A stretch of 59,786 bases of DNA, filler included, from Dugesia japonica (lineage: Eukaryota), in NCBI GenBank assembly GCA_001938525.1. It is 5 parts of 5 records of this genome, joined end to end, with 100 filler letters (N's around TTAATTAATTAA, not from the genome) between each part and the next. Parts side by side here need not be neighbours in the genome. Positions count along the whole stretch, not along the records: positions 20,619 to 32,909 come from MQRL01603017.1; 4 more parts are not named here. One strand, written 5' to 3'. The stretch's first letter is position 1; the number at the start of each line of letters is the position of its first letter. The position numbers were made by a program, and so were the translations under genes. This document shows positions 7,901 through 50,817 of this stretch, one piece after another. The notes beneath the pieces were generated by a model. The model saw only the letters and a list, made by a program, of their open reading frames with translations, had not been told where the DNA came from and made no database searches.

Positions 7901-10900
7901 AGGAAGGAAAATCGAAAGACAAAAGGAAACAAAAAGAAATATCAATTATCCAGACGATATTATTAAGTTGGATGAGTATATTCAAGGTTCAAGACACAAA
8001 TTTCTAATGAACAAACGACAAAGAACAATGATATCAGATACAAGAAGTGAATCCGCAGCAGATTATTTGACTGCCAATGTAGAAATTGACAAGATGAATT
8101 TTCAGAATAACTTTAAAAAACAAAGCGAGAGGATTACAGAAAGGAGAAAATAGATTCCAAAAGAAATGAAAGCAGAAAATCAGAATACTACATTATAGAA
8201 AGGAGATTGGGTAATGGTAAAAACAGAAGAGAGAGGGTTACTTTAAAAAGATATACAGGGCCGTGAATGGTAAGCAAGTTTCTCAGTAATGATAATTTAG
8301 AATTAGATGATGGAATGAAAGTAATTCGTCGAAATCTTCACCAAATAAAACGATTCAATGGAGAATTCGGAAATAAAAAAGAAATAATTGAAGAATCAAT
8401 CATTAGTACCGGTTCTAGGACAATTTCTTTCCGGACAATTTCCCTTGGATAATATCCCCCAGACAATATCCCCGGAAAATTATTTAATTATATAATTTCT
8501 TTTCAATTGCAAGTTATAATTATTACAAATAACTATTTATGACGAAATAATAAAAATTTTGAGGAAAGTAAAATATTTTTTTCTTTTCAATTCCAAGTTN
8601 NNNNNNNNNNNNNNNNNNNNNNNNNNNNNNNNNNNNNNNNNNNNNNNNNNNNNNNNNNNNNNNNNNNNNNNNNNNNNNNNNNNNNNNNNNNNNNNNNNNN
8701 NNNNNNNNNNNNNNNNNNNNNNNNNNNNNNNNNNNNNNNNNNNNNNNNNNNNNNNNNNNNNNNNAATAGTTTACTTGTAAGTTTAATTTTAAATATTAAT
8801 TAATATAATTATTTTTTTCAGATCATTATTAATTGAAATAATGGAATATATTATGTCCGAGAAAGGAAAAGAAAAACTTCTACTTGAAAAAATTCTTGCT
8901 AGAAATATGAGAGCAGTATTCTTGAATTGTAATAATCATAAGCGAAATTTGGCCGGAACACACTGGCTACATAAGATCCAGTCGTTATCACATTTCTGGA
9001 AATGCTCAAGCCATATATGCAATTTTTCTCGTTATACTATTCGATGGGGGATATTAAAACAAAAACTAAAGTTAACATTAAAGCAAGATTCAAAAATATG
9101 CTAGAGCACACAAACAGTTATTCATCAAGGACTGGATGAACTAGTAACCTTTTTGGAAGAATTATCAGAAGACCCAGAAACTTTAAGCGATGCAGCATAA
9201 TTGCTATCAAATATTTCCAATTTTTCGTTTTAGTAAATTTTTGGCACGTCATTTTGAAAGAAATTAATAGAAGTCAGATGCGTTTGCAAGATCCTACCAT
9301 AAATTTCAAAGAGGCAGCAACTGATTTTTAATCCCTGGAATCAAATCTAGACTATGTGATGACTTGTGTGATGATTCAATTAAATTAGTGAAATTGAGAT
9401 TCATAGATTGGGGAGTGAAAATAATTAAATTATTGAGAAAACGTCGAAAATTGTCTCGGGAACTATCGAACAATGTACAACTTTCAGTAAAGAGGAGATA
9501 TCACACGCAGTGAAAGGAGTGTTCGGTCTATTGTAGCTAGAAGTAATAAATCAATATTCCACGCTAAAAGACTAAAAAAATTTGAATTTTTGCTAGACTT
9601 CGAAGCACTCCTTTCCAAAAATATGAAAATAAATTCGCCAAAATTGCACAAATACAATCTTGGAATAATAGACGAATTCATTGTTGCCTAGACAAGACGA
9701 AGAAACAATACGAAAAGCTATTTCTGAAAAGTGAATATTGAAATTTAGATATCCAAGAGAGCTAAAACTGAATTTTGGAATAACCTTTGAATCAAGAGTT
9801 ATGGTAGAGTTTAAACAGAGGCTATATATTAAACTTTACTTTTCGAGTCCTTATTATTACAACACAAACGGACAAATCAAAAGACAGTTTAAGACAATTC
9901 GAGATTTAATTAATACCACACTTCATAAAAAAAGAACAATATATTTGGGAGACTTATTGCCGGAAATAGAATTTACTAACAAACCAGAAAACAACTAGAA
10001 AGAGCCCGGTTGAGATCATATTTAGAAAGAAAATTATGAGAGAAAAGTGGTTCGAATCAGAAGTTTCATAAAGAACAATAAGAAAAGATTTCAAAAGTAA
10101 CTACTAATATATTAGAATTCAAAATATTATACTGTATTATCATAAAGATAGAGACAAGAAATAAAAGCCAATGTATATTTGAAGGTACTTGTCGAATAAT
10201 TGAGAAAATTCATGAAAGACGTTAAGCGATACAAGAAGAAAGTGCAAAGCGATTGGAGAGAAATGTAGAAAACTTTTAAAGTTTCTTAAGAAGGAGATAT
10301 AAGGAAACAATGAATAAAATTAAAAAATAGTAAGGGATTAAAATAATTTATTAATGTGTTCAGTTCTACTTGCCATATATTTATTAACTTGGATATACAT
10401 TAATAGTGGATATAAATATTTTTGAAATTAATAGTTCTCATTTAGAAAATAAATTATCATTGGAATATTTACCTAGCATACATTATTATATATTATAATT
10501 TATACATAATTTAACACTTTCTTTAAACTGTCAATTATAATTTTCAATTTTAATCCTTGCAGGTATCATTCCTTACATGAGTAATTTATGATAAATTTTC
10601 TATTAAAAATACAGTTCTATATATGACATTGTCTTATACTTGCTAAATTAATGTATATGTTCACTAATTAAAATTAAATAAGTAAACAAATATAAAAACT
10701 CATGTATATATTTTAAATTTCTGAATTAATATATAACTACCCTAAACTGTTGGAAAAACTGTAATGGAACCATTTGTAGTTCATTAAAATTGTAAATTAA
10801 AATAAGTAAACATTTTACAAAACATTTTTACGGTAATACTATAATTTAGGTTCCTTGGGCTGGGAAAGTGGTTTACAAACTGGTGATATTATAAGAAGAG

Positions 10901-11003: not shown

Positions 11004-11253
11004 GTGAGCTTTTCAGAATTAAAAAATAAATAACATTCAATAAATATTAAATAATACATAAAACAATTGATTATTTAAATGAATGAGTTATTAGCATTTG
11101 TTAGAAAAATAGTCCGAAGACAATTTATTTCCGATTAAAAAAACCATCAGTTTACACATTTTATTTAATAAAATACGGAATATTTTATTTAAAATAAAAT
11201 ACCAAATAGAATTGATCTTCAAATAAAATTAATTTTAAACAAATTTCATTTGT

Positions 11254-11353
11254 NNNNNNNNNNNNNNNNNNNNNNNNNNNNNNNNNNNNNNNNNNNNTTA
11301 ATTAATTAANNNNNNNNNNNNNNNNNNNNNNNNNNNNNNNNNNNNNNNNNNNN
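11254..11353. other. Artificial scaffolding linker N44-TTAATTAATTAA-N44 (also cores at 20563-20574, 32954-32965, 43992-44003)
   Basis: The same roughly 100-nt spacer occurs four times. The palindromic core has stops in all six frames. Confidence 0.95.
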
Positions 11354-12424
11354 AGCATTAATAATAAATAATTTAAGCTAAAATTACTTACTACTCTCAA
11401 ATCATTTCAAACATGTGATTAAATAGTGAAATAGTTAAACAAATAATATATCTTTTAATTAAAAATTAAAAAAGATTTCGATTACATGTAAACCAATGCT
11501 CTGTTTAACTGTAAATTTGGCAGGTAAAAACTTGCTGAAATGGATTACACACATACAAAATATTTTTGATTTAAACTAATACCCTGTATTTATATATTTG
11601 AAAGAAACATTGAAGTTAAAGATGCACCTATAAGATTACCAATTTTCTAAGCCTATTTCCTTTAATACCTAAAGTATAGCTTAATCAAAGATTTATCATT
11701 TCAATATAATAGAACATTGATAGATTAAATTCAGATCAAAATACACAACATTACAACTCATTAAAAGCATCCAACTGAACTACTAACGTTTAGGTTAAAA
11801 ATAATATTCAAAACTTTATTTGAATGCTGCAAATTAATAAAATTAAAATAAAATTATATAAATAAAAAATAATAATAATGAATGAGTATAAATATAATAA
11901 TGAAAATAAAAATTTCGATAATGATGGTTATTATTATAATTTAATTTGTGAAAGTATTATCAAAGACCCAGATAAGTTTAGTAACGTATTAAATATTGTA
12001 TTCTGAAAGNNNNNNNNNNNNNNNNNNNNNNNNNNNNNNNNNNNNNNNNNNNNNNNNNNTACTAACGTTTAGGTTAAAAATAATATTCAAAACTTTATTT
12101 GAATGCTGCAAATTAATAAAATTAAAATAAAATGATATAAATAAAAAATAATAATAATGAATGAATATAAATATAATAATGAAAATAAAAATTTCGATAA
12201 TGATGGTTATTATAATAATTTAATTTGTGAAAGTATTATCAAAGACCCAGATAAGTTTAGTAACGTATTAAATATTGTATTCTGAAAGATTTAAACAATT
12301 TCAAAGAGAGTAGTATAAATCTAAAAATGACTCTTTGAANNNNNNNNNNNTTTCACAGTCTTATAAAATCATAAATATATTTTGTAATAAGTCTGAAACA
12401 TCAATTTAATTGTGTTCTGGTCCT

Positions 12425-15039: not shown

Positions 15040-15657
15040 TTATTGATAACATAGAAATAATATGTTGATAACATATTTATAACATATTTTGATAATGTAT
15101 TGATAATATATTTTGGTAATATATTGATAATGTATTGATAATATATTTTGGTAATAAGTTGATAAGATATTTGATATTGATAACATATTGATAACATATT
15201 GATAACATATTGATAACATATTGATAANNNNNNNNNNNNNNNNNNNNNNNNNNNNNNNNNNNNNNNNNNNNNNNNNNAACATATTGATAACATATTGATA
15301 ACATATTAATAACATATTAATAACATATTAATAACATATTGATAATATATTGATAACATATTGATAACATATTGATAACATATTGATAACATATTGATAA
15401 CATATTGATAACATATTGATAACATATTNNNNNNNNNNNNNNNNNNNNNNNNNNNNNNNNNNNNNNNNNNNNNNNNNNNNNNNNNNNNNNNNNNNNNNNN
15501 NNNNNNNNNNNNNNNNNNNNNNNNNNNNNNNNNNNNNNNNNNNNNNNNNNNNNNNNNNNNNNNNNNNNNNNNNNNNNNNNNNNNNNNNNNNNNNNNNNNN
15601 NNNNNNNNNNNNNNNNNNNNATAACATATTGATAACATATTGATAACATATTGATAA
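15040..15657. repeat. 11-bp tandem repeat (ATTGATAACAT)n, partly in gaps
   Basis: Many directly visible units; these generate the spurious MLSICYQYVIN ORFs. Confidence 0.95.
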
Positions 15658-17240: not shown

Positions 17241-19006
17241 AAATCGATTTTGTGTACGAAATTCAGTAAAAGTCAATTTTCTTCTGAACTGAGAAATTTT
17301 CTAGATTTTTATAATATATTAAATAAGAATAATGGATATTTTTGATTAATTCGCCGAGTTTATTTATTTTAATTTCGTTTAAATTTATTATCAAAACATT
17401 AAATTTTATTAATTTGTTACGCAAAACAATTAACAGAAGAAGAAAGAACAAACATCAAACCGTAAAGAAATTAATGCGTTAACTAGAAAATTCGAAAAGA
17501 AAATAAAACGTTTTACAACTACGGTGATCATTGGAAAACAAAATTTTCGATAAATTTAATCATAAATATAAGTATAACGAATTTCAAGCAAATGAACAAT
17601 GCACTCTATACACTGCATGATATTGTCTCAACATGAAATCCATTCTTCTGTTGAGGTTTTGAAATGTGGCTGGTGTAATAACTGAGATTCTTAAGAATGC
17701 AACAATATTGAAATAGTAAATTATTTCTTAATTGGTATTCTAATCAACCAATCAGAAGCAGTCTGTCACGCGTTTAAAACATGATGCTATAAATTGCACT
17801 TCTAAATTTAATTCGAATTGCCTCCTTGTATAATAAATGAAGCTTTAAATTTGGGAGAAAATTATAAAAATAAAAATGTAAAACGTATACCAAAAAGTGA
17901 CGCTTTAGAAAAATCAAGAGTTTTGCCTAATTAAAACAGAAAAATTGTTTGGAACTTAAGTTAAAACCCAATTAGAATTACCTATTACTGGGTGATGACT
18001 GGAAAAACCCTTACAAAGAATTCAAACTACTAAATTTATTGAATAACTGAATAAACCACCACTGGCTAAACTCATGAAGTGTCAGATTTGCAGTTAACTC
18101 ATATATAAAACGTTTAGTGAGACTTACCACAGAATCATCTTTAGAATTTTGCTACAAGTATTATTGGTATAATACAAGATGAAAAAATTAAAGAAAAATT
18201 TTGAGCAACAAAACTATGGGGTGTATTTAGAGAAGAAAAAAATGTAGAAATTAATGCTAGGAATTATTTGCAGATATTAGAATGTTTTGAAATATAATTT
18301 TCTGACAAGTAGTCAACTAGAAGGCTGAACTTGAATCTCATATAGGTTGTAAGGTATTCTATTTCAAAACGCTAATATTACCACGCGGAAATATTCCAAT
18401 TTATATAAAAGGAAGTGTATATTAATGATTTTAGAATTTCAATTAAAAACATTATTTAAAAATAACTTAGCAACCGCCGAAAATTAAAAGAAATTAATTT
18501 TGAAACTGGAAAATAAATTTCAAATTTTGGCAATTGAAATACAAAGAGAACTAAGTTGACAACCTGGAAAAAAGAAGATTTTAGCAAATAAAATAAATTA
18601 TACAATAAGGATAAAATCGGACCAGCACAAAAAAATGCGAATAATAAACCACTTGAAATCAAAATATGTAATTTGAGAAAACAATCAACTGAAACAGACG
18701 TGTTCTCTAATCAACAACACATAAAGAATTGAAAATCGAAATTAAAAAAATGCATTCGAGGACTTATTTAATTGAAACATTAGTATTTTAAGAATTAATT
18801 AAAGAAATAATTCCACTCAAGCAGTTGTATTCTCTAATAGAAGCCAAATTAATAGACGTTCGAGGAAAAGGTGCTGTTTCAAAAAATGTCGAAGTAAATA
18901 ATATTATTTTCCAATTACAATTATTGCGAGAATAATTGTTGGACAAAACCATTAATCGTTTTTCAGAATTCATTTAAAATAAAAACATTTTTTTGTTTTT
19001 GATAAT

Positions 19007-19041
19007 AATTCAAATTTTCGACTTTGTCTTCGTCAGGAATT
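19007..19041 (-). ncRNA. Minimal hammerhead ribozyme
   Basis: Minus strand reads AATTC-CTGACGA-a-GAC-aaa-GTC-GAAA-ATTT-GAATT; the core is intact. Confidence 0.8.
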
Positions 19042-19104
19042 GACTTTTTTTGATTAATTCAATATTTCCATTATAAACATAAATCTTGAATAAATCAAAA
19101 AACT

Positions 19105-19140
19105 GAATTCCTGATGAAGACAAAGTCAAAAATTAGAATT
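19105..19140 (+). ncRNA. Hammerhead ribozyme, probably inactive (GAAA changed to AAAA)
   Basis: GAATTC-CTGATGA-a-GAC-aaa-GTC-AAAA-ATTA-GAATT; catalytic G12 is replaced. Confidence 0.65.
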
Positions 19141-20449
19141 ATTATCAAAAACAAAAACAAAATTTTACTCGAAGCTTTTATTTTAATAAATAATATTTGG
19201 TTTTACAAACTTTNAACAAATTTTGTTGATCTTTGATTGACCTCATTATTATTTATTTACATATTCTTTGTCTTATCAGTCTTTGTAATTTATAAAACAT
19301 AAAATTTGCGGTGACTTTTTTGGGGCCATTAAACTCATAAATAATTGAATAATATAATATAAATTAGTAAAAGAAAAAGAATTAAATTATATGATTTTAG
19401 AAATCGAATTAACCTGTTCTTATTAAAACGAATCTATAAGAGTCATAAAAGGAGGCATAAGACCTGAACAGGAAGGAATTGTTTTACAATTACAATTATA
19501 TCGAGAATAATTTTTGGACATAACCATTGATCGTTTTACAGAATTCTTTGAAAATAAAAGCTTCAATCAAAATTGAATTATAAGAATTGGATTATAAATT
19601 TAACTTTTATTGTTATATTCAATGTCAAACAGAATATTTTGTTATTTACAATAATGGTTGTTCTACATATTAATAAAAAATTTTACAAATTTTGTGATAA
19701 AAATAAAGTTTTTAATCTATGTTAAATTCATTTTAAGAGGCTTTGTGATGATACTTTTGTAAGAATTCAATTACTAAAGAAAAATGAAATGATTTATTTA
19801 AACAATTAATAATAAAATTACACACATACATTGAAAATCAATTTTACTTATTTATCACTTAATTATTTGAGTTTTATTATAAAATATTAGGAGGTAATTA
19901 GTATTTATTTATTAAATACAAATGGAAATAATAAATATGTTTTATTTAAACAAAAAATCGGAAATTTGTTGAAATGTTGAATATTATTATAAATACATTT
20001 TTATTCAAAACGAAATAAAACATTATTTTAATAAAATATGCAAACTCGAAAAACAACATAGAAAAAATATATTTTTCTTTTATATTATTACAGAAGATAT
20101 TTTTCAAAGAAATACTTTAATTTGACAATTAATTTTTTATTCAATTAATAACATTATATAATTAACTTTCAAGGTATTTTCAATTATAAGGGTTTTTTTA
20201 TTTAAAAGAAACAATTTTTTATCAGGATTTTATGTGTGAAATATACGACACTTGATTGTGACACGATTGTTTTTTATTAAATTACAACTTTTTGTTTCAG
20301 AAGAATCAACAGCTGCATACTCACATTTGTAAACTTTTTCTCGTTTTGTTTGAATTTTTCGAAGTTACCTCATCAGGAAAAGTTATTTTGTAAATTATAT
20401 TTCATGTCTGTTGATATTAATTAATTGGAAATCATAAATGTATTATAAT

Positions 20450-20450
<1 letters not shown>

Positions 20451-20518
<68 letters not shown>
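20451..20518. repeat. (AAT)n/(ATT)n fold-back microsatellite
   Basis: An AAT run switches to its reverse complement ATT, next to a gap. Confidence 0.85.
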
Positions 20519-20730
20519 NNNNNNNNNNNNNNNNNNNNNNNNNNNNNNNNNNNNNNNNNNNNTTAATTAATTAANNNNNNNNNNNNNNNNNNNNNNNNNN
20601 NNNNNNNNNNNNNNNNNNAATCGGAATAGAAAAGAGAAAGAAAAATAAATGAATTGGTTTTGTAGTCATATTTAGAGATAACCAATAATTACATTCCATT
20701 TAATGAAATGCAATTAATTATCGATTTTAG

Positions 20731-21747
20731 AAACAAGAAATCAGTGAAAATAATATGAAAAATTTAGAAGCAAATCAAACAACCTTTATCAAATATAATG
20801 ATTCATGGAGCCAATTTTTAGAACCTGAAACATATGCAATAACGAAAGTCTGTTTTAGTGTTTGCATAATCACTACATCATTCCATGCAGTTTTAATCAC
20901 AACAAATCGTCAACTTCGTCGTCTATATGGTCTTTGTTTGTGTATGACTTTATACTTAATGTTGATTTCTTATTTCGGAACACTTTTGGCTTGCTCATTT
21001 ATCTTCAGTAAAATGTTTGAATTTGGAATTAATATTCTAACAAATTCTTCTATTATGGGTATTAATACAAGTATTTTTGCTGGTTTATTAATTGATTCAT
21101 ATTTTCTTCATATCGGTCAGTATTCACTTCCTCAGCGTAGGAAAAATAAGATTTTGTTTCTTTGCTGTCAAGTGTTGATAGCTTTAATTCTTCCATTTCT
21201 GTTCATAGTTTTATATTTAGCATTTACTATTCAACCTTTTATAAAACGTTCTGTTTATAATCAAACATGGATTCTACCTAAAAAAGAAGTTCTTTGCGGG
21301 ATTGGATCTACTCATGTTATGAACATTATGTTGTTTTCTACAATAATATTTGTATTATTAATACAAATCATTTTAACAATTATAAATGGACGAAAATTCT
21401 CTTTCTTAACTGGTGAATGTATGCTTATTTCGAATTTGCGAGATATGAAATCCAGACACTTCATGCATATAAAATTAGTATTTACTAATACTTTAATTTG
21501 GATTATAGCATTCTTCGCTGTTGAATTTAATATAACATCAATGTGGCACATTTTTACTTTAAGTTGTTCGTTACAATCAATATTTCTAGCAATTAGTTTC
21601 ATTTTCAGTAGACCTGTACTTGATATATTACACAATGGAGATCAATCAAAAGGAATAAGTCGATTGGCATTAAATAAAGGTATTCTTTATTCAGCAGTAC
21701 CTCGATTAACATTGAAAAATAATATTATTAAAAAAAGTAATATTTAA
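20731..21747 (+). CDS. Family-B-like (Methuselah/adhesion-type) GPCR, 7TM-coding terminal exon
   Basis: The 330-aa ORF has about seven hydrophobic segments, with LRRLYGLCL after TM1, IWIIAFF in TM6 and LQSIFLAISFIFSRPV in TM7. An in-frame acceptor TTTTAG ends at 20730, and AATAAA lies at 21901. Confidence 0.8.
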   Translation, partial: KQEISENNMKNLEANQTTFIKYNDSWSQFLEPETYAITKVCFSVCIITTSFHAVLITTNRQLRRLYGLCLCMTLYLMLISYFGTLLACSFIFSKMFEFGINILTNSSIMGINTSIFAGLLIDSYFLHIGQYSLPQRRKNKILFLCCQVLIALILPFLFIVLYLAFTIQPFIKRSVYNQTWILPKKEVLCGIGSTHVMNIMLFSTIIFVLLIQIILTIINGRKFSFLTGECMLISNLRDMKSRHFMHIKLVFTNTLIWIIAFFAVEFNITSMWHIFTLSCSLQSIFLAISFIFSRPVLDILHNGDQSKGISRLALNKGILYSAVPRLTLKNNIIKKSNI

Positions 21748-24639: not shown

Positions 24640-25511
24640 ATGAATCTCTAGAGCCTGCCAACTACTGAGGAGGAAGATGTGAAATTCTTTCAAGATCGTG
24701 GTATACTGTCAAAAGAACGAAGATGCAAGAACGACCATCTCATGAAGCTGAACACTGGCAAAGAAATCTTCTGAAAGTGCACACTCAGGGCCTGCTATAA
24801 GAAGATGAATATTCGCAACGGCAACTGGTTCGCTCAATCTCATCTTCCATTCGTTACTATCGCGCGTTTCATCTACATCTGGGCCTGGGAAATGACATCT
24901 GGGAAGCTGTGCAAGAGGGAGCTCGGGATCAACAAGGACACAAAAATAGATTGGAGTAACTATCTGAGGCAAGCATGCATGGAGAATCTACTTGCAAAGT
25001 ATCAAAGACAAATAGGCAGGATGATCGTGGAAATTGATGAGTCACTTTTCACCAAGCGCAAAAACAATGCCGGTCGGGTGCTACCTCAACGATGGATCTT
25101 TGGAGGGATATGCCGCAAAACCAAGGAATGCTTTCTCATCGAAGAGCCAAATCGAAGTGTGCTTCTCTGCTGACTGCAATCAAGGAGAACATTCCCGAGG
25201 AGACCATCATCTACTCAGACAGCTGGAAGGCCTACAAGACACAAGAAATGGAGCAAGCTGGATTTAAACATTTCAGGATCAACCATCGTTACAATTTTGT
25301 AGATGCCGAGACAGGCGCACACACTCAAACCGTGGAAAGGATGTGGGGATCAGCAAAATGGAGGAATAAAAAGCACAGAAGCACCGATCATCACTTCCTG
25401 AAGTCTTACTTGGCCGAGTCCATGTGAAGAAGCAGTATTGACGAAGAGAATTCGTTAGATGCTATTCTGGATGAGATGAAGAATCGTTGGCCGCCTGCTA
25501 TTAGAGAATGA
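24640..25511 (+). mobile_element. Merlin (ISXO2/IS1595-like) DDE transposase pseudogene
   Basis: N-terminal zinc-ribbon cysteines, IVEIDESLFTKRKNNAGR, WIFGGICR, IIYSDSWKAY, H..INHRYNFVD..TGAHTQTVERMW. It carries three in-frame stops and one frameshift. Confidence 0.92.
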
Positions 25512-26394
25512 TTGTTCTAATGTTTGTTTCTATTGTTTATTGTATGATTTGGAATAAAAAAAATTTAAAAAAATTGTAAAATAAAAATATAAAAATAAAT
25601 ACTGTCATTTTATCTCCAACTTACCCCAGTAGTCCTGTCAGCTTTTCAGGAATTGTTAGATACAAAATCCGAAACACCATATACAGATCTTCGGGAAGCT
25701 ATAATCAACAGTAGCAAACTAACGACCTCTTATTATATAGATAAAAAGTTTCTACTCTTACCTCTTGGAGATCAAAGACTGTTAGATCGTCTTCGACAAT
25801 TACGGAGACACTTCCAAGAGATAGAACTTAATTAAAAAATNNNNNNNNNNNNNATGCTATTAAGAGATGCATTTATAAGAGCAATACCTCAAAATATCAA
25901 GCCTCATCTCGTCTCTAAGGAAAACTGCTCATTGATAGAACTGTTGGGGTGAAACACCCGGTCGGTAAATAAAACTTGGAGCCAAGGGCCCAAATCATAA
26001 AATAATGAAGAAGGGGGTTGAAAAAAAAATATTGATTAGGAATACGTATCTTTTGGCTAAAGATTATAATTATTATACTAATAAAAAAGATCAGATGAAT
26101 GAATTCAACCCTCATCAATTTCAATAATTAAGGAAAACTATAATTTATTAAGAAGAAACAAGAAAATTATTATTGAAAATAATAATAAATAAGCAAGAAA
26201 AAAATTAATTAATTTTAGCCAAAAAAATAAGTTAAACTAGACGAAAATTGGTTTTTGAAGGATATCTTTGCTCTAGAAAATTGCAAGAGATTCTAGCAAG
26301 AAAATCTGAGGAGGAAATGATATGGGGCAATAGGATTTTCTAACAAGAATATCCAACCAGCAACAGAAGGCCCGCTAAAGGGGTTGGAAGAATA

Positions 26395-26632
26395 GGCCAA
26401 TAATGGGCCAGAAAAGAAAAATAAAACAAAGCCCTGAAAAAAAACGAGGTGTCCTAAAAATAGGAACCAATGATTGTTGAAAAACTCTTAGAAAAATCAG
26501 AAAATTGGCGCAAGTACCAATGAAAAATAAGAAATTCAAAACAAAAATAGAAGGCCAATGGCGATTGTGCCGAGTTCTAAAGGGAAAGGTGTATAAACCC
26601 CCCGAAATTTAGAAGAAATCATCATCATTTTC
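26395..26632 (+). promoter_or_regulatory. Pol II promoter inside the insertion (4x CCAAT, TATA, Inr)
   Basis: CCAAT at 26397, 26467, 26517 and 26555; TATAAA at 26592; TCATT initiator-like motif about 30 nt downstream. Confidence 0.7.
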
Positions 26633-26970
26633 TCAATTTTGCTAATATAGGCACATTGTGTTACTATTATAACTAATTTTGGAGAACGATTTACAAGAAC
26701 TATTAATAATCGATTGTAAGCTCACAATTGTTAAATCACTTTACTAACCGTATCTATTTCGGAATTACAGAAGAGGAAAACTTTGGTCAATAATAAGAAG
26801 GGAATTGAACAGGAAAAACTATCATTCAAGTTTAACTGACATTGTTTCGCATTCTTAAAGAATAAACCGTTGCAGAAATTTCTACCTTATCAGTGAGTAT
26901 TAGTTGTTATTTCATGATATTAAATGATGATATCTTGCATTCATAATAAATATGTTTAATATTTTAGATC

Positions 26971-27155
26971 ATGCCGGTGGAACTACGAAATACCTTGCGC
27001 GTGATTCTAAGGCAACGCAGGTCAGCTCGTCAAAAACAATTAATAGGCCGACTACTATTTCAAGAATTGGTAGAACATCCCGAAAAACTGATTTACAGTG
27101 CTTCGTCGAGATGTTCCCGTTAAGATACAATGTGAACATCGACCAGGGAGATTAG
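26971..27155 (+). pseudogene. LTR cargo ORF1 (MPVELRNTLRVILRQRR..., probable frameshift)
   Basis: ATG lies 3 nt after the acceptor ending at 26967 of intron GTGAGT...TTTTAG (26893-26967); the region is GC-richer than its flanks. Confidence 0.5.
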
Positions 27156-27316
27156 TTGCTGATGCAAAACCTCGATTGTTTATTCATTTGTCGTAATTTC
27201 GTTAAAATACATAATAACCCAATGATTTTATTTCATATTTAATTAGTTGGAATTTTCCCCTTTATTGTTTTTTTAAAATTTTCTTTGATTAAGTAATGAG
27301 GTTTATTTATTTGTAG

Positions 27317-27736
27317 TGAACCATAATTGGGAAGTGATACATGAAAGGACCACCGGCCGGATGATATTCAAAAAATATCTCAACACGTATTATCGCGATG
27401 CCAGAATTTTAACAGAGCGGTCAAACCTGCCTGCGAATGTTGCTTACGAAGAAAGACTGATGGACGCCACTGATCGACAAGCATATTATCACTAGACCGG
27501 ACCTGATTGCAGTCATGCACGTTTTCCGTCAGAATCGTATCCACAGACTAAGTAAATGGTATGCCAATTTATGAGTGGGTCTGGAGAGAAAACACCTCCC
27601 TCCGCTTGAACCCGTCCTCATTCCGATAGGGCTAGGAGGAATAATCCGGGATACGCACTGCATTGTCCGAAATACTTCGAGTGGAGCTAATGATGAAAAC
27701 ATTGAATTACCCACGGATAGTGTACTATCTCCATAG
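27317..27736 (+). pseudogene. LTR cargo ORF2 (M/NHNWEVIHERTTGRMIFKKY..., disrupted)
   Basis: Acceptor TTGTAG|TG; open for 59 codons in the A|TG frame, then coding-like sequence continues in another frame. Confidence 0.5.
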
Positions 27737-27937
27737 TCGCGAAGTTTATCATTTTTATCTTTCTTAGTGTTTTTTAATAAAATGTTTTGGCTGTAGATAT
27801 TTGATTCATCAACTAATCATTTATTCGTTTATTGGTTGAATTCACTTCAGATTAAAATAATTTTTAGAATGCTTTGTTCACTCATATTCAATTTCTCTGA
27901 CTTTATAATCCATGATTAATTTAAATTCGAATACTAG

Positions 27938-28288
27938 TGCATTCTTCTATAAACCGCTCTGTCGCTCCAACCAAAAAAATAAGAGAAACCAGCGAAGATT
28001 TAGAGATGACGTGGGACCTATACCATCTTGCTAAGCGCCACTGAGAGGCGGACACTGCAACAGCAGAAAGTAAAGTAAAGAGGTATAAGGTCAAATGCAT
28101 TGCGTTCCGTAAAGAGGTTGATGCCTCACACGCACAAAAACGCTTGTAGTACACAAGTAGAATGTTTCGCGGAGAACATTCGATCCCTCCATGACCGTGA
28201 GAATAAACTGGTAACTGATATAATCAAACTTTGGGAACACATGCTACTGGAGCCTCTCATGGTGGATAAACCAACCCAAACTACATGA
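27938..28288 (+). pseudogene. LTR cargo ORF3 (M/HSSINRSVAPTKKIRE..., coiled-coil-like, disrupted)
   Basis: Acceptor ACTAG|TG; a premature stop and a frameshift are needed to reach the ...KLWEHMLLEPLMVDKPTQTT* end. Confidence 0.45.
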
Positions 28289-28442
28289 TCTTAAGATGTT
28301 GTGTTTTGTATAAATAAAACTGTTATTTATAATTTTAATCATGGGTCCTCTCCTACTCTTTTCTTTTATAGTAAGAAAAAATACGAATTTTGAATTGCTT
28401 TTAATTGACAGTAAAATTTCAACTTAATTATTTCTATTATAG

Positions 28443-28804
28443 TGCTGAGAATCAGACTTCCCACCAGTTTACGGCGCTGCCACCAACNTATTCAAAAATT
28501 GTTACTTGAGCGCCATATCAAGCGACAAAACGAACGCNNACTCCTACGACATCTTACCCAGCGCAACCGGTTGATTAAGAAATTAGATGTCATAGTCAAA
28601 AAACAAGACGAGTTAGCCGAACAAAAAAAACAAGTGCTCCAGCACAAAATCGAATTTCTAGAACAATATATTGCCGACCCGACTAGTCGCCTCGAGCAAG
28701 AGGCGTGGACTCGCTGGAATAGCGAGGATTATGAAGTCACTTTTGATTTCATGTCTATAGAGCCAACCCAGTGGTTAGACCCGGGTGCTCTCGATTACAT
28801 GTAG
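28443..28804 (+). CDS. LTR cargo ORF4, 120-aa coiled-coil protein of unknown family
   Basis: Acceptor TTATAG|TG; the ORF is uninterrupted but has no genomic ATG near its start. AATAAA follows at about 28812 and 28850. Confidence 0.6.
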
Positions 28805-29511
28805 ATAATTAAAAATAAATATTAATATTAGTGAATTCTTAGTTACTTTAATAAAAACAAAGAAGGGAAAATAATGAATCCACACCAAAGATACACGAGT
28901 AAGTACTCCAAATAAGCGTTGGGAGTCAACCGCTCCGTACTGAAGATCTAATCAGGGACATTAGGTAAATTCTTGAACGGGTCCTCTGAGGGCTGTTTTT
29001 TCCACAGCCAACTTGTTCTATCACAAACTCAGGTGGGACCCTAACAGAACTAAGAAAATTGGCTAACAGACCTGAGCAAATCAAATTTTTATAAGATGTA
29101 CACAGCATCTCGATTCAAACAATTACAAGCGGAGTATAGCAACTACGAGATGAAATAAATCAACTTAACATGGTTTATGCACAATATCAACAGATGGAAC
29201 TTGCAATTGCCAACACAAATATGGAAAATCAACCAGAAAATGCCGGGAACCATGTGATTGGAATTTTAAACAAACACAAGAAAATGAAAAAGGTTCTCAA
29301 TAATTACGGTGATTGAGAACCCTATCACTGCTGAACCGAAACTCATCTCTACAATATTCANTGTTCCCTGTTCTAATCGACACAGGAGCAGATGTCAGTA
29401 TTTTACCAGCCAAACCATTTCACATCAATTATTGTGAAACGACCAAACAACTCATTTCAGCTGGCGGTAACACAATTCCAACTCGGGGACAACGCACTTT
29501 GTACTTTAACA

Positions 29512-29695
29512 TTGTTGTAGAATGGATTAAATCGTTAAATGAGAAGATAACGATTAGAAATGAAATTTGTTCAAGCTGGATATTCAAACGTATTTTGGAA
29601 ATTAATTTCAAAATAACTGAAGTCAGCAATATCAGTAGACTTTCGGGAAGTAGTTTCATTCCAACACCAAAAAAATTCTAAATAAAAAGAAATAC
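29512..29695 (+). mobile_element. Fragment resembling a Maverick/Polinton-type DNA-polymerase-associated ORF
   Basis: SSWIFKRILEINFKITE...LSGSSFIPTPKKF resembles the GSGW...GSSYIPLP motif as I recall it. Confidence 0.45.
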
Positions 29696-29699
29696 AAGC

Positions 29700-30105
29700 A
29701 AGCAGCTTGTAGACAAACTTACACATCTGAACATAAGAAGAACAGATCCTTCAAAATCTTTGTAATAGGTTCCTGTATCAAAAATAGCTAACCTAGTCTA
29801 ACTACCTGGCAGAAATTTATTTCGCTTCTAATCCCGAAACCAGATAAGGAAGACTACACTAAACTAAATAACTGGAGACCGATCGGCCTTCTCAAAACGG
29901 TGTACGAAATTTTCACCACCTGACTCACAAACAAACTTCAGACATTGATATTCTGTCAGAAACTCCAACACAGAAACAGGAACAGTTCAGGCGAATTTGA
30001 AGGATGCATTGAGCATAACTTTGCTCAATCATATTTTATTAAAAATGCAAAGTTAATGAAAGCTACTTTCCACATAGCTTTCCTTGATATAATTGATGCA
30101 TTTTT
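29700..30105 (+). mobile_element. Non-LTR retrotransposon RT fragment (NeSL/R2-like)
   Basis: TWQKFISLLIPKPDKEDYTKLNNWRPIGLLKTVY...EGCIEHNF...AFLDIIDAF. Confidence 0.8.
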
Positions 30106-33100
30106 TCTGATTTTTCAGTATTTTCTCTCGATTATTGGAATTGCAATTTGCTAAATTCAGAACAACAATATGTTGAAAATATTAATAGAATAACAACATA
30201 GATTTATCAATTCAAAACTAAGATTATTTAATTGGTTAAATAATTGCGATAATTTAGTTAAAAGTTAGACTGAAATAATCGAATAATTATCACCTTTTAC
30301 TGAGTCCAGACCTTCTAGTGCCATAATAACAAATTTAAGAAGATGTGCAGAATTTCCAGTGTTTTCTCTCGATTTCATTTGCAAAACGCACTGGCACATA
30401 ACATTCAATACTATTTTCTGCATACAGAGCTCGGTGTAATTTACAACTTAGCAAAACTTCATGATGTTATGCATGTAATTGTTTTTCAATTAAATTATCC
30501 CTATGAAATCACAAGAGAAACACTTAAAATTCAGCACTACCAAGTTTATATAAATGCTGTCAGATCTCAAGTAATATCTTTTCCCACTTAACTTCTTGAA
30601 ATAAGTCTTCAAAAATTCCCAAAAATTCAAGTGGACATTTACTGTCTCAGAAACTAATTGGGATCAGACTTCTTCAGATATAATGGCATCATAATAGGCT
30701 GTCAACGGAATCAAATTATTCTCAAAAACAATACAGTGCAAGGATCGCGAAATAATGATAATTCCCATAGAACAGTGCACAATTATATGCTATACCACAA
30801 ACCAGAACTTTGAATCATGACAACTGGTCCACCTATATCTCAAAAACCTCGAAGAAACATCGCATTTGGAGCAAGTCTGAATCACGAAGTCAACGACAAA
30901 CTTGCTCCCATAGCATTTTTCTAAAGAAAATTAAACAAGGCAGAACAAATATATTCAATGTTTGATCGTGAACTTTGAGCCATATATCTATCCAACAAGA
31001 ATTTCAAGCATTACTTAGAAGTTTGCGAATTCACAATTTTAACAGATCACAAGCCACTACTATACATTCAATCAATGAAAAACCCAACAAACAGGCAATG
31101 GCGTCATATTGAGTTTATCAGTCAGTTCTCATTTCAGCTCAAGTACGTGAAAGGATCAGAAAACGTTGCAGCTGATTTCTTATCAAGAATTCCAGAAAAC
31201 ATTCTGAAGCCAAAATATTTTCAATAAAAAAGGATGAATTGTTCAAAGAACAACAATAAGACTCTTCACTCATACAATGTCACTCACTAAAAATAAAGAA
31301 GCTTGACGGAATCTTGACAAAGATTTTGCTACCCACGAGGTACACAAAGACTGATATTGAGAGATTTCACAATATTGCGCATCCATGGGCCAAGAAAACA
31401 ACAGATCTAATTTGAGCTCGTTACGTTTGTGCAAAGATGAAATCGGACATTCGAGAATAGACAAGGCAATGCAACAGATGTCAATCACAAAGAATTACAC
31501 GTCATTCGCAATATTCACTTAAACTTCTTACAGAATTAGGACGGTTCAAAGTGATGTACATGGATATTGTCGGAACTCTACATTAATGTGAAGGAAAGTG
31601 ATTCATTCTGACGATGATCGGTCGTTAAACATCTTGGCCTGAGGCCATACCAGTAAATAATTAACAACAAAAGCTATTTTAGATACGGTTGAAAAAGTGT
31701 GGATCAGTAGATTTGGCCCACCGGAGATCATGATCAAGTAAGACAATTTATATCAAATCAATTTAAAGAAATGTGCAAGAGATACGTAATTGATCACAGC
31801 AACACAACAGAATACCACCTACAATGTAACGGTAAAAGCGAGAGACTTCATCGAAGCCTAAAAAAATGCTATTCGAACACATAGTACAACTGCAGAACGG
31901 AGATGGTCCATTGACTTGCCTATAGTCATGCTTGNNNNNNNNNNNNNNNNNNNNNNNNNNNNNNNNNNNNNNNNNNNNNNNNNNCTGCAGAACGGAGATG
32001 GTCCATTGACTTGCCTATAGTCATGCTTGGACTAAGAAATGCAACAATTACAAAGCAATAAGCATCACCAGCGCAACTCGTCTATGGTTCTTAAACTCGC
32101 CTCCCGGAGACATCATTCTGACCACATGGAAATTTCCATTACGAAAGAAAATTTCCAGGCTGCAATACAAAGACTCGGGAGAACAAAGCCACACAATATT
32201 ACAAAAAGAACCATCTTCATTCCATCTGCTCTAAAAAATTGCAAACAATATGGCTCTGTGCACCCAATCTAACAAGCCTGAAATCACAATACGAATGATT
32301 ATGTCGTATAATCCAAATGAGTACAGATTAAAAGAAATTTGAAATTGACATCGATGGAATTAGAAAAACGGTATCAATTGACAGGCTGAAACCAACATTC
32401 ACTTATTGCCGGGTATTATGTAATATGACTTTTAATCATATTATATTTTAAATTAAATATATACTTTAAACAAATTCATTTTTTAATTTTAATTTTAATA
32501 AATATTGCCATTTTGTCTTTTATTTATGGTCTTTAAAAAGTACGAACTCAACAAGGAGCTATATCGATGATGAGTGTTAATATATTGAAAATCTTAAATG
32601 ATAGTCATAGTTATAAGCTGATAATTGATGGAAAATATAAATCAATGGCGACTAAGATAAGTAAAAAGAATATTCATAATGGTAACGATAACTGAAGGTA
32701 CAGAGTCATAGTGGATATAAAATGATTGGATGAAAATGATTGAACAAACCTGGACCAATAAAGGGTTAAAAACTACTTTGTTATGCATTAGAGGAGAGAA
32801 AGATGTTGGGATTGAGCCCACCACAAATTGAATTAGAAATGTGAATTAGAAGACATGAGAAAATTATATCAAGAAATGGTGGATAGACAACAAGAAAGAG
32901 AAGACTTTGNNNNNNNNNNNNNNNNNNNNNNNNNNNNNNNNNNNNNNNNNNNNTTAATTAATTAANNNNNNNNNNNNNNNNNNNNNNNNNNNNNNNNNNN
33001 NNNNNNNNNGATGAGACAGACTTGATATTTTGCAAGGTATGAGGCAGTGAAAAATTCATATTCTTAAATAGAAATAAAACATTTATAATTTTCAAATACA

Positions 33101-34019
33101 GAGTATAAATATTCAATAAATTGCCTAAATTTATTTAAAATTTGTATTTATTAATTTTCTTAATATTCTTAACTTGAAATAAACTTAATTAACAGAGAAT
33201 TTGTGCCGAATAAAGTTGAAAAATTGAAGAAATTCAATCATTTTTAATTCACTGCAAATAATCACTGAACAATCTAAATTATAATTATTTTGTAATTTAA
33301 AATCTTTTTAAATTTTTCAAGTAATAAACAATTTAAAATTAATTTGAAGAAAGTTTATACGATCAAAATATATTCAAAACAAACAATCACTCAAAAAATC
33401 AATATATAATTTTAAACTATTTTATCTCAATAATATTCAGTTATTTCTAATGAGAAAATAAAAATTTTTAAAAAATGTTACGAAAATATTTTAGAAAAAT
33501 ATTAATTTTAAAGTTTCAATATTATATGTATTTCATTAATATTTTTACAATATGGATTCTTAATTTATTTTAAAATTTTTATTAATTAATAAACAATTTT
33601 TTTTAATTTTTAATGTAAATTAAAACATAACTTTTTTGAAGATTACTGCTTTTAAATAAATAAATTAATTTCATATTCTTAAATAGCAATACAATAAATC
33701 GTTATTCACAGCAGAATTAAGAGTTATTTTTTAATTTATTTTTAAAATTCATTAACGAAGATTAACAATATTTGATAAAGAATTTTCATTTCATAAAAAT
33801 CATTTTAAAAACTGTTTAATTTTTTTTAATTATTTTCCTTTGAAAAATATATTTTTAAAATTTAAAATAAATTTTTTTTCTCTTTCAGAAATTTAAATTA
33901 AAATATTTTTAAATAATTTTTGAAAATTTAATTGAATACATTATCATGAAAACAANNNNNNNNNNNNNNNNNNNNNNNNNNNNNNNNNNNNNNNNNNNNN
34001 NNNNATTTAAAAAATTATA

Positions 34020-34619
34020 ATGGATATTGTCAATTTCCATAGTAACGACTTTATGAATTGTAAATATCAAAACAAATCTTATTCAGAATCCTCAAATATT
34101 AGATATTCTAAATGTAAAGCATTCGGTAGATCAGATCATTTTTGTGATAAATATAAAGTTAAAAAGATATTTGTAAATATGAAATTGACTGGATTATTAG
34201 CTGAAGAAACAAATATGTATAAAGGTGTAAAGATTATTTATAATGAACCAGCAGAAGCTCATCTATCATCGGAATATTGGGGTTTATATACATTTAAAGG
34301 TGATGAATCGTTACCAACTATTCATCTTCACCGACAAAGTGCCTTTTTAATTGGAAAACACAAAGATATCTGTGAAATCTTCATGGCTCATCCAAGTATT
34401 AGTAAACAACATGCAGTAATTCAATTTAGGAACATGGACGATTGCGTTAAACCATATATTATTGATTTAAAATCAACTAACGGTACATTTATTAACGGTA
34501 TCNNNNNNNNNNNNNNNNNNNNNNNNNNNNNNNNNNNNAAAGACGTTTTGAAATTCGGATTTTCATGTCGTGAATATGTTTTACTAACAGATAAATCAGT
34601 AAATTCAGATCGACAATAA
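34020..34619 (+). CDS. SNIP1: SNIP1/Pml1-like FHA-domain protein (intronless)
   Basis: LTGLLAEETNMYKGVKIIYNEPAEA...LYTFKGDESLP..HLHRQSAFLIG...HPSISKQHAVIQFR...KPYIIDLKSTNGTFING...DVLKFGFSCREYVLL. The duplicate at 34729-34977 fills the gap with QIEAQKYYELQE. Confidence 0.9.
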   Translation: MDIVNFHSNDFMNCKYQNKSYSESSNIRYSKCKAFGRSDHFCDKYKVKKIFVNMKLTGLLAEETNMYKGVKIIYNEPAEAHLSSEYWGLYTFKGDESLPTIHLHRQSAFLIGKHKDICEIFMAHPSISKQHAVIQFRNMDDCVKPYIIDLKSTNGTFINGIXXXXXXXXXXXXKDVLKFGFSCREYVLLTDKSVNSDRQ

Positions 34620-41512: not shown

Positions 41513-43730
41513 TGTTGGTTAGAACGCCAGAATAACGGAGTAGTACAGGGTTAAAAAGATGTCCGAATAAGTGAATAAAACGAGCAGAAATTAAGAAATT
41601 TACTAGACTGGACCAGGAAAATAGACTATTATAATTATTGTTATCATTCTTATTATATAGTTATTGGGAATATAATTATTATGAATTTATTATAAAAAGA
41701 TCGGGAAAATGACAATTGGGCAAGTTGGATTATAAAAATAAATTTTTCGAGAATTAAGACAGGAAGGTTTAGATAAATAATAAAAAGTCTACATTACTAC
41801 AATATTATATTATTATGACCCTAGTTATTTATTATATTAACGGCAATTACCGCTTAATATTATTACAATCTCTTAATTAATGAAATCATCTGGTCCAGTC
41901 AGTGTCTGATTAGGGTGGAATGTAGTCTGAATATAGTAACAAACAAGTTACTCACCCTAATCCAGACAAAGACACTACCTAGTGATATTCAAATGAATCA
42001 GAGATCGTGCGAGGTAACCGATTAAAAATCTGACGCAGACGAGTCGGTGCTGAAACCAATTACACACGCTCGCGAGATGATGTGCACACTGATGGAAGAA
42101 CAAGCGGCTTCCAATCAAACGACCTGATTAGAGACAGATTATGATTGATAGGCGAATGAGCAGCCTCAACCTCTCTGTAGAGCAAACAAATAAAAAGCGC
42201 ATGCAACAGAAAAATCTATCCCTTTAAAAACCTAAAAAAATTTTTTAACTTAAAAAAATAATTTTTATAAATTTGTACGAGATTGGAATTGCATAGAAAG
42301 ATGTTTATCGAGATTTTGCAAATAAGTACTAACCAGTAAATTGATCTAGAGTAATTTTATTATAAATTAATATGGTTATAAATATTCCTTACATGATCTG
42401 ATTGTATTCCTAAAATCGAGCGGATGGTCGAGCTCTCAGAGAATAAAATGTTGTGTTTATAATACTGTCGAAAGCAAAATACTCAGAGGAATTAATATGA
42501 TGTTCAAAGAATAAAATGTTGCGAAGTATATGTGGTAACTGCCAAAAATGGAGAGACACGAAATATTCTCGAGAATGTAGATTATTGTAGAAAATGTGAA
42601 TGTTGATGGAATCAAATACGATACGAAGTTTAAAAGGCTTTCAAAAGTTTCCAATTCTGACATGATGCATATACCGTTACGAACACGGTCGGAGAGGAAT
42701 CAATATACGGTAAAAATATAAAATGCCTTCGGAACGTAAAAAAATTCTGAAAAACCAACTGGTTGAACGAAATGAAATGCTGACGAGATTCAAATATTGA
42801 GAGACCCATATGTCAAATAAAAACAACGATTGTCAAAACATAGCAATGAAAGAAAATATGCATCTCGAGTTGAATTGGTGTGAAAGTTGAAGGGCGTAGC
42901 AAGTAAATACAGACTAAAATAAATTTGCCAAAATAGTTTCCAACAAATGTGACAGTGTAATTGGAAATGATCATCAGAACGAGTACGATGATTGAATGAG
43001 CAGTTTTTGTGGGAGTTCAGTTATTATGTGAATAGGCTTTTGTATTTCTTTTGTGTTTGCAAGAATATGTTGATGATTTTGATTTTGAGATAAATCCGAA
43101 TAAAACGTTATGAACATTTATTTTAATGGTGTTATTTAAATAAATTTTAATGAAATTTCTATAAGTTTTATTTTTAAATCATAATAACCTACCAATCAAT
43201 GTTATCTACACACTAAAATTCTCCTTTTGTAGAAAATCCTATTGAGAGCTCTGCATAAATGAGAACGAGAAAAGATGGTGATTCGGAATCGCCATCTTCT
43301 CTGGTTCGCATTTTAGGAACGGGGACGAAGCCATACCAGGTCACAGATACGAAAACCGTCACACTCATACTCTTAATTTGATAATTCTTCTAATTATTTA
43401 AAGTGTTTTATTGATGAATCTAAAATTTTATTATTTTATTATTTTAGATGAATTCGTTATATCGTCCATACGAGAAGTTAAAGTTGGATAGCTACGATTG
43501 GACGCATATCGATGAGTATTGTAAATATTTTATCGAATGGTCAGAAGTACAAGCCATGGTCCATACGGAGTAGGAACGGCGTGAGTTATAGACCTAGCTA
43601 GAGATTACCCAACTACAATTAGCAATCAAGGAGGGCATCCTGCAAGCAATGTCCAGTCAGCATAATCGTCCACACCAGGCCCTCGAACTATGGTCGAAAA
43701 TACAAGGTGGAGAGAGATCGGAGACTTCTT
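41513..43730 (+). mobile_element. Composite LTR-like remnant with structured segments and acceptor-led short ORFs
   Basis: Begins TGTTGG, has long hairpins at 41903-41968 and 43257-43313, and GC-richer cassettes after acceptors at 43232 and 43447. The right boundary is not established. Confidence 0.4.
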
Positions 43731-45196
43731 TTCTTTTCTTTTTTATAATTAGACACTCTTATCCTGATAATTAGATAAACTACTATTTTTTCCAGATTGG
43801 AAATAAAAAAAAATTTTCCAAAGGCTATTGATAATTTTGCTAAAGTTATTTTTAATTTTGAATCTCTAAAAATTTTTTAATACTTAGGTTGTTATCACAA
43901 TGAATTATCATTTTAATTACAACTTGGTTTAGTAATTCATTTTTAACNNNNNNNNNNNNNNNNNNNNNNNNNNNNNNNNNNNNNNNNNNNNTTAATTAAT
44001 TAANNNNNNNNNNNNNNNNNNNNNNNNNNNNNNNNNNNNNNNNNNNNAATTATTTACTCATAAATTAAATTGAATACTTTTTATAGATTCTGAAAATTAT
44101 TGAAATGATTAACTATTTATTAAATAAATTATGAAAAAACAATTTTAAATAATAAATAAAAATTTGAAAGTATTGTAGAAATGTTCATTTAAAATTCCAT
44201 GTTAAAATTAAATTTTAAATTATTCAGTTATTTATTAATAGAAAATAGTACACTCAATTCTCTTTGTATGCGGTAGATGCGTTCCATGGAAATTTGCATT
44301 TACAAAATTCGCGTAAAAATACATACATTTAAATACAAAATAATAGATACGTTCTATTTACTCAAAACTTCGCATAATAGCCAAATAATTACTTAAAATG
44401 CAACAAAATTTGCATAAAACGAAAGAAACATTCTGAAAAATGATGAAAAATTACTCGAAATATTGGAGAACCTTTAAAGTAATATAAATGGATCTAAATA
44501 TTATTGAATTCATTCGATCATAATGAATCATATAATGAGACCTCGGTTTCATTTTCAGCAAGAAAAAATATTTTCATAAAAATAAAACGTAACTCAAAAT
44601 TTATCAAAATTGGTATCAATTAATAGAGAGATTTGCGCTGATTCCGAATATCATCATTTAATATCATCAAACTTTATATGACTTCGGAAAAATCTAAAAA
44701 ACCAAAGGGAAAAAGAAGTCATCCATCGCAGTATTCGAACCGACTACTGAATTTTCGGAAGAATTTAGATAATATGCGTTTTTTCAATTCTCTGTCGTTT
44801 GGTATAGGTTTAAAGTCAATAAGTTAAAAAGTCGATAATTTGAAATATTAACCACTAAAAAATTTTTAAAAATATATTAAAAAACAACATTTTAATCAAA
44901 GCTTTTTATTTAATGAAATCCCAAATACAATTAGTGATTAAGTCCAATAATTCTTGTAATTGTTCAATTATTCAGATTGAATTTTTAACTCGATAAGTAA
45001 TGTCCACCCTTTTATTACGCATCTAACGATACCAAATTCGATTAGAAAGTTCAATATTTACTTTCTATTTATCCTCCAAAAGTTTTTTTTATTTTGATGA
45101 AATTGATCTTCTTTATTTTTCTTTATCAAGAGTGAAAAAATATATTTTTCTAGTCAAATTTTTTCAAATAATTATTCGTAATCATTTTAAAATATT

Positions 45197-50620: not shown

Positions 50621-50817
50621 AAATATTTTATAAATTATTTACTGCAATATCACATGAGTTTTTTNNNNNNNNNNNNNNNNNNNNNNNNNNNNNAATTCTA
50701 TACCTGAAATTTCTTATTTATCTGCAATCTCTTCTTTTATTATGTGAATTTCATTTAAAATACTTTTCTCTTAAAAAAATATAGTTGTTATTTTCTTTTT
50801 CTTTTCATCGATTTTTA

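Follow-up and report, generated by a model that had tools for sequence, protein, structure and literature searches.

We analysed a 59,786-nucleotide stretch of Dugesia japonica DNA (assembly GCA_001938525.1; hereafter the window), in which a 3105-base insertion, likely a solo long terminal repeat (LTR), carries four short blocks of DNA that we call cassettes, preceded by a promoter-like sequence and a predicted two-exon leader. The coordinates of these features are given in Table 1. The cassettes have a GC content of 44-45%, whereas that of the AT-rich spacers between them is 22-23%. An earlier, sequence-only reading of this DNA had described four such GC-richer cassettes with AT-rich spacers, together with a TATA/initiator promoter, an intron 1, a leader ending in A/GTGAGT (the slash marks a predicted splice boundary) and splice acceptors at 26967, 27316, 27937 and 28442, and all of these were found again at the same positions. 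The cassettes show no detectable kinship with one another or with the rest of the window.

The promoter-like sequence consists of TATAAA at 26592-26597 and TCA repeats at 26619-26627. The predicted leader that follows comprises 216 bases and contains 0 ATG (p=0.014, 20000 shuffles); the 75 bases between the donor and acceptor 1 contain 4. Leader exon 2 is closed in all three frames, and its final A, at 26892, would serve as the first letter of the start codon. The adjoining donor, TCA/GTGAGT at 26893, is the sole full match to GTRAGT in 26600-28860. An AATAAA also lies within leader exon 2 at 26861-26866 on the plus strand, 26 bases ahead of the donor, and may bear on the end of R.

Acceptor 26967 is followed by ATC ATG, and the acceptors at 27316, 27937 and 28442 are each followed by TG, with no ATG at the start of cassettes 2-4. 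Placing the leader's A before the TG opens 59, 35 and 120 codons in cassettes 2, 3 and 4, respectively, and the spliced joints of these cassettes would read ATC-A/TG, the same six letters that begin open reading frame (ORF) 1 in the genomic sequence. An in-frame stop lies 4-9 codons upstream of the TG in cassettes 2-4. The first in-frame ATG is codon 16 in ORF2, codon 24 in ORF3 and codon 104 in ORF4, and this last position leaves the 120-codon ORF4 with no usable ATG. A branch-like motif lies 17-23 bases ahead of each of the four acceptors, although DNA this rich in AT makes it a weak sign. In unspliced RNA the acceptor G and the TG form an in-frame GTG at acceptors 2, 3 and 4, so the earlier statement that unspliced RNA makes none of the proteins is not strictly correct. 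Cassettes 1-3 are broken and the window copy is decayed; cassette 1, for example, reads ...VEHP in one frame and ...LQCFVEMFPL in another. ORF4 had been called intact, and its 120 codons are indeed open, but three unknown bases make this provisional. Likewise, the AATAAA noted after the last ORF is present, but the hexamer is not restricted to that position, since it also follows cassettes 2 and 3.

Table 1. Features of the insertion and its setting (window coordinates)
Feature	Position	Strand	Basis
Older decayed Ty3/gypsy element hosting the insertion	29047-32400, left piece 25857-25941	+	protease, RNase H, integrase
Left target-site duplication, GAAC	25938-25941	+	sequence
Insertion, 3105 bases, TG...CA ends, likely solo LTR	25942-29046	+	ends, duplication, flanks
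U3-like upstream part of insertion	25942-26591	+	position ahead of TATA box
TATA box and initiator-like TCA repeats, putative start site	26592-26627	+	sequence
Predicted leader exon 1, without ATG	26622-26715	+	sequence
Predicted intron 1, 55 bases, GTAAGC ... TACTAAC ... CAG	26716-26770	+	sequence
Predicted leader exon 2, without ATG, 3' end ...ATCA	26771-26892	+	sequence
Predicted shared splice donor GTGAGT	26893-26898	+	sequence
Cassette 1, acceptor 26967, own ATG at 26971, frameshift near 27083	26968-27152	+	sequence, contigs
Cassette 2, AG/TG, stop 27493-27495, probable later frameshifts	27317-27742	+	sequence, contigs
AATAAA after cassette 2	27776-27781	+	sequence
Cassette 3, AG/TG, stop 28042-28044, 3'-half frame unsettled	27938-28290	+	sequence, contigs
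AATAAA after cassette 3	28313-28318	+	sequence
Cassette 4, AG/TG, 120 open codons, three unknown bases	28443-28804	+	sequence
Two AATAAA after cassette 4 (28814, 28850)	28814-28855	+	sequence
Right target-site duplication, GAAC	29047-29050	+	sequence

The insertion that carries the cassettes ends in TGTTGGGG and CCCTAACA, with 7 of the 8 terminal bases complementary. Of 23 TG...CA pairs with a 4-base duplication in the window, the pair at 25942-29046 is the only one that brackets the cassettes. It splits a single reading frame, with ...ENCSLIE in the left flank and ELRKLANRPEQ in the right; we take these flanks to be gag-like, and Pfam gave no match for them. Domains in gypsy order lie downstream: RVP (E 0.003, under the cut-off), RT_RNaseH (E 7e-22) and Integrase_H2C2 (E 2e-9). 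Inside the insertion a promoter motif is followed by poly(A) motifs, an LTR-like order as far as motifs can tell. TG...CA ends, a 4-base duplication and a promoter-then-poly(A) order are marks of an LTR. The ends, the duplication and the insertion into the frame of an older gypsy element thus make it likely that an animal element of the Ty3/gypsy type left 25942-29046 behind as a solo LTR, a context that was absent from the earlier reading. The cassette unit may belong to U3 and have a promoter of its own; R or U5 is the other candidate location, and would then be unusually long. We rejected the idea that the ATG at 28874 is a gag start and the cassettes a gypsy 5' leader, because this ATG falls between the ends of the insertion. 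A donor-like TAG/GTAAAT also occurs at 28965 on the plus strand, in the insertion's final 80 bases, where the main donor for a full element's internal part might be placed. Directly upstream of the gypsy element is a decayed IS1595/Merlin-type transposase (24640-25500, plus strand; PF12762, E 2e-9).

Other copies were compared by aligning the DNA contig sets X1, X3 and X7, together with X21, to window positions 26640-28487. Summed alignment depth was not taken as copy number, and sparse or absent coverage of the leader and spacers, here and in the RNA alignments, was given no weight. In X1, 1085 contigs aligned, 823 of them less than 95% alike, and in X3 981 aligned, with 766 below 95%; X21 gave only three AT-rich, unrelated-looking pieces. 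The insertion belongs to a multi-copy family whose diverged members carry the cassettes in one order. Contigs with joints across the spacers keep the window's order of cassettes, and likeness resumes just upstream of the acceptors. Such joints were seen at 27116>27306 (one contig each in X1, X3 and X7; side 48), 27737>27872 (one each in X1 and X3; side 67), 28284>28377 (one in X1; side 60) and 28212>28423 (one each in X1 and X3; side 29, weak). Within window positions 26991-27727, X7, which is from organism B, contains pieces of 151-228 bases that are identical to the window copy at a depth of 2-4, alongside diverged contigs. Because of these identical low-depth pieces and the study common to X3 and X7, we did not count organism B as a second species; carry-over or a shared insertion is a possible source of the identical pieces.

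The alignments also bear on the acceptors. Pieces about 82% alike start at 27934, 4 bases before exon 3, and the letters upstream are unlike those of the window and T-rich; loose ends at 27934 occur in nine contigs of X1 and two of X7. The differences listed upstream of acceptor 3 keep or add pyrimidines, and the one listed at position -3 of the intron 1 acceptor keeps a pyrimidine in two X1 and seven X3 contigs. Acceptors 2 and 4 are spanned by 85%- and 91%-alike pieces, and none of the differences listed (40 of 145) falls at any AG/TG. The damage in the cassettes is private to the window copy. The stop of cassette 2 (27493-5) differs in 12 X1 contigs (83% of depth), that of cassette 3 (28042-4) differs in 19 (87% of depth), and near 27083 in cassette 1 the window copy is frameshifted relative to most of the depth (four contigs each in X1 and X3). 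Thus, the 59- and 35-codon lengths given in the sequence-only reading are accurate for this copy, as is the length of 120, but they reflect damage in it, since the stops are not common to most aligned copies. Taken one by one, 12 of the 22 differences listed for the A+TG frames lie at a third codon position (p=0.03); 9 of 20 leave the amino acid unchanged (p=0.04-0.08), and none creates a stop.

We compared the AG/TG acceptors with the background of the window, where, counting both strands, TG follows 50 of 840 AT-rich YAG sites (6%). Within the cassette region the proportion is 4 of 10 (p=0.002), and at the acceptors that start cassettes it is 3 of 4, with p=0.0008 at the rate of 6% and p=0.004 at the local rate (11/103 AG).

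The predicted products of the cassettes are about 60-140 residues long, with predicted starts MP, MN, MH and ML. No cassette frame contains a hydrophobic stretch of membrane length (top 19-residue hydropathy 1.3), the predicted proteins have no N-myristoylation motif, and Pfam gave no match at the cut-off for any cassette. The cassette proteins would most likely act on the element as soluble regulators. In ORF4 the first 40 residues are basic, the middle is heptad-like, with 8 of 14 a/d positions hydrophobic, and the tail is acidic and aromatic; that protein 4 might be a transactivator is a guess from these features. We rejected ORF4 as a bZIP protein because the Asn...Arg spacing of the basic region is missing, and rejected alternative C-terminal exons like those of mod(mdg4) on the ground that the leader contains neither an ATG nor an open frame. 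Two weak PHROG matches of unknown function (E 0.004 and 0.009) were set aside. Searches for homologues of ORF4 gave 0 of 7 candidates, 0 in 1.84 billion representatives and 0 in PDB sequences; its best Atlas score was 0.88, with low recognition over the last 87 residues. A pattern search for ORF4 in viral contigs gave 0/8 matches, and DNA patterns gave 0 matches in metagenome and viral contigs.

Raw RNA runs with the same species label (X14, X15 and X18; about 6%, 25% and 25% of each run) were compared with the window at 85% likeness, and 3, 48 and 4 reads aligned, respectively. None of these reads was 99% alike to the window copy. Diverged reads and contigs align to 26200-26620, which includes the TATA region, and of three joints found in X13 contigs none is GT..AG. 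The RNA says nothing for or against the predicted splicing; the case from DNA appears good on the acceptor side.

Our preferred reading, to which we assign a probability of roughly 0.6, is that a likely solo LTR carries four small genes, and that its ATG-free leader is spliced to alternative last exons and gives its A to three of their start codons. Transcription would start about 30 bases past the TATA box, intron 1 would be removed, and donor 26893 would join one of the four acceptors. A joint to acceptor 1 would remove four upstream ATGs and expose ORF1's own ATC-ATG, and a joint to acceptor 2, 3 or 4 would build ATC-A/TG. The AATAAA behind the chosen exon would then set the 3' end of the message, and each RNA would encode a single small protein. 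The earlier proposal of an accessory-gene cassette with a shared non-coding leader and a splice-built ATG is upheld here as the best reading, with support from DNA; its polycistronic RNA, however, fits less well than alternative last exons, since AATAAA follows cassettes 2, 3 and 4. RNA that retains its introns would offer GTG starts behind many upstream ATGs and would yield little of proteins 2-4, and genomic RNA would have to retain introns for a complete copy of the LTR to be made. The choice of splice site would act as a switch, because unspliced RNA has only GTG, behind many ATGs, at the starts of ORFs 2-4. We hold a wider proposal more tentatively, at a little under even odds: that the LTR is a four-gene regulatory unit in which alternative splicing deals out half a start codon to three last exons, that unspliced RNA cannot start proteins 2-4, that the accessory protein made is selected by splice choice alone, that the proteins belong to undescribed families, and that the logic of complex retroviruses was reached separately in a Ty3/gypsy lineage.

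Several observations weigh against the preferred reading. No splice joint was seen in the X14, X15 and X18 reads, and 0 reads lie over 26662-27046, which includes most of the leader. Among the DNA joints listed (15 of 20), none is a clean loss of a GT..AG interval and none marks an intron-less copy. The leader's final A is crossed only by near-identical pieces among those listed (0 differences in 417 bases; 2 in 579), and AG/TG in other copies is deduced from where alignments start and from the absence of differences among the 40 of 145 listed. The tested AG/TG sites were picked after the fact and are perhaps not independent. A fourth, at 27767 on the plus strand, which the sequence-only reading left out of its otherwise confirmed list of three, has a strong T tract and lies where cassette 2 ends, with AATAAA following 9 bases later; it has no branch-like motif and opens only 8 codons. 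AATAAA is absent after cassette 1. The signal of selection in the A+TG frames, taken from the listed differences, runs in the expected direction, but it is weak, and in the 3' block of cassette 3 no frame stands out (silent differences 4/14, 4/13 and 4/14). In this window no primer-binding site, purine tract or internal region is linked to the insertion, and no informative relatives of the cassette proteins were found in Pfam, PDB, PHROG, Atlas or the representative sequences.

Some of these observations would also suit other explanations. The TG could be an internal phase-1 join, with an N-terminal peptide supplied by an upstream coding exon, either in the leader or in read-through from the 3' LTR of a full element. 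There is precedent in ZAM, Beagle and idefix, in which env is described as joined by splicing to short upstream peptides (10.1101/2023.08.03.551782). The window copy is decayed and could have lost a leader ATG, the leader was compared in near-identical pieces rather than across diverged copies, and the diverged reads over the TATA region mean that read-through RNA may exist. Even so, we consider such a join unlikely: leader exon 2 is closed in three frames and neither leader exon has an ATG, a phase-1 join would not require TG at all three sites, and ORF1 carries an ATG of its own in an identical ATC-ATG setting. Slightly less probable still is that the genes are translated from the genomic GTG, or from ATGs further downstream, on RNAs that are unspliced or begin internally, and that the AT-rich spacers merely lend the sites the look of acceptors. 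At each of the three sites the GTG is in frame, acceptor-like sites arise readily in AT-rich DNA (10 in 1.9 kb), and neither the RNA nor the DNA alignments revealed a junction. However, likeness to the diverged copies begins at CTAG, before the G, and the differences upstream keep or add pyrimidines; the branch-like motifs recur at a similar distance from all four acceptors; the full-match donor and the ATG-free leader would be left unexplained; and three near-cognate starts behind many ATGs are improbable under scanning.

The splicing model could also hold with a different carrier, namely a non-autonomous element that belongs to another class and has short inverted ends and a target duplication of 4 bases, which would accord with the lack of any visible second repeat or internal region. 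The TG...CA ends, the 4-base duplication and the promoter-then-poly(A) order speak for an LTR instead, and very large gypsy-like elements are described from planarians (PMC6431247); we regard another carrier as quite improbable. Least probable of all, by a little, is that the AG/TG pattern is a coincidence picked post hoc in decayed repeat DNA. The sites were indeed chosen by eye, the AG/TG at 27767 is a dead end, three of the four cassettes are broken and homologues are lacking. Against coincidence stand a p of about 0.001-0.004 before the match of frames is considered, breaks that are private to the window copy, and a cassette order that is kept in diverged copies.

Elsewhere in the window, a single-frame SNIP1-like FHA gene lies at 34011-34619 (plus strand), about 53% identical to its best relatives, of which the best named include several tapeworms at 52-53% identity; it is possibly a retrocopy or a fast-evolving paralogue. 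At 20731-21747 (plus strand) a single frame of 338 codons encodes a seven-transmembrane protein for which Pfam gave no match and Atlas gave features of secretin-family or Methuselah-like G protein-coupled receptors (0.92-0.93). At 43010-46238 lies another TG...CA pair, also with a duplication of 4 bases and with GC-rich ends, which may reflect chance or a further insertion. Weak matches to reverse transcriptase (46590-47000, minus strand; E 0.035) and to a zinc knuckle (7605-8153, plus strand; E 0.007) are retroelement remnants. A dispersed family resembling miniature inverted-repeat transposable elements, with long inverted arms, occurs at 18897-19167, 44874-45425, 48030-48084 and 50808-50944, and a long array of 11-base units lies at 15140-15640, with similar 8-11-base arrays elsewhere. 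The N gaps at 11253-11354, 20518-20619, 32910-33009 and 43948-44048, each with a central 12-base stop linker, are assembly artefacts.

LTR retrotransposons are usually viewed as simple, with non-coding ends, and the exons of retroviral accessory genes normally have their own AUG. Knock-down of the PIWI pathway releases LTR elements from repression (PMC8532177). The nearest parallels to a gene within an LTR come from retroviruses. In mouse mammary tumour virus (MMTV) the accessory gene sag overlaps U3 and lengthens the LTR (PMC9147501), and accessory proteins made from singly or multiply spliced RNAs are described for complex retroviruses, with extra promoters in U3 in MMTV and an internal promoter in foamy viruses (PMC9147501, PMC12789967). 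Whereas one gene overlaps U3 in MMTV, here the repeat would wholly enclose four genes, together with both leader exons and several poly(A) hexamers. The adenovirus tripartite leader is likewise a non-coding spliced leader with alternative acceptors and separate 3' ends; adenovirus, however, is a DNA virus whose exons each have their own AUG, whereas cassettes 2-4 lack a start ATG. Among retrotransposons, the MDG1 group (412, Mdg1, Blood and Stalker) is described as having sORF1 and sORF2 near the 5' end, with an early poly(A) site after sORF1 (PMC11952523). Those sORFs lie upstream of gag on unspliced RNA, unlike the cassettes, for which splicing is predicted, and sORF2 is a membrane fusogen, whereas the cassettes have no membrane segment or N-myristoylation motif and so are not of the sORF2 type. 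Burro/GYPSM1, giant gypsy-like elements of planarians, resemble the insertion in their likely host group, large size and accessory coding capacity, which in their case means a polyprotein with accessory domains and a single ORF upstream; genes inside the LTR do not figure in the section on them that we consulted (PMC6431247).

In a survey of literature listings that left subscription papers, supplements and Repbase outside its scope, we found no report in which several exons have a half-codon in common, nor one of genes within planarian LTRs. The closest known case is env in the springer subclade of Drosophila errantiviruses, whose start codon is described as completed by splicing, with AU coming from the donor (10.1101/2023.08.03.551782). 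As with the cassettes, this is an ORF of a Ty3/gypsy-type element with a splice-completed start. In springer, however, the donor AU has one target, env, downstream of pol, whereas here a donor A would serve three small ORFs inside a terminal repeat. The cassettes are not of the springer type, since the codon is split A/TG rather than AU/G, and their products, at about 60-140 residues with no membrane segment and no Pfam match at the cut-off, are not F-type envelopes. If the preferred reading is correct, the repeat holds a spliced multi-gene regulatory unit, and each solo LTR left in the genome would amount to a mobile expression cassette for four genes. A start codon common to three exons would couple translation to splice choice in a compact way and bar genomic RNA from making the accessory proteins, and such ORFs escape annotation that relies on ATG. 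Single splice-completed start codons are known from springer env, and what would be new here, if true, is one half-codon common to three genes.

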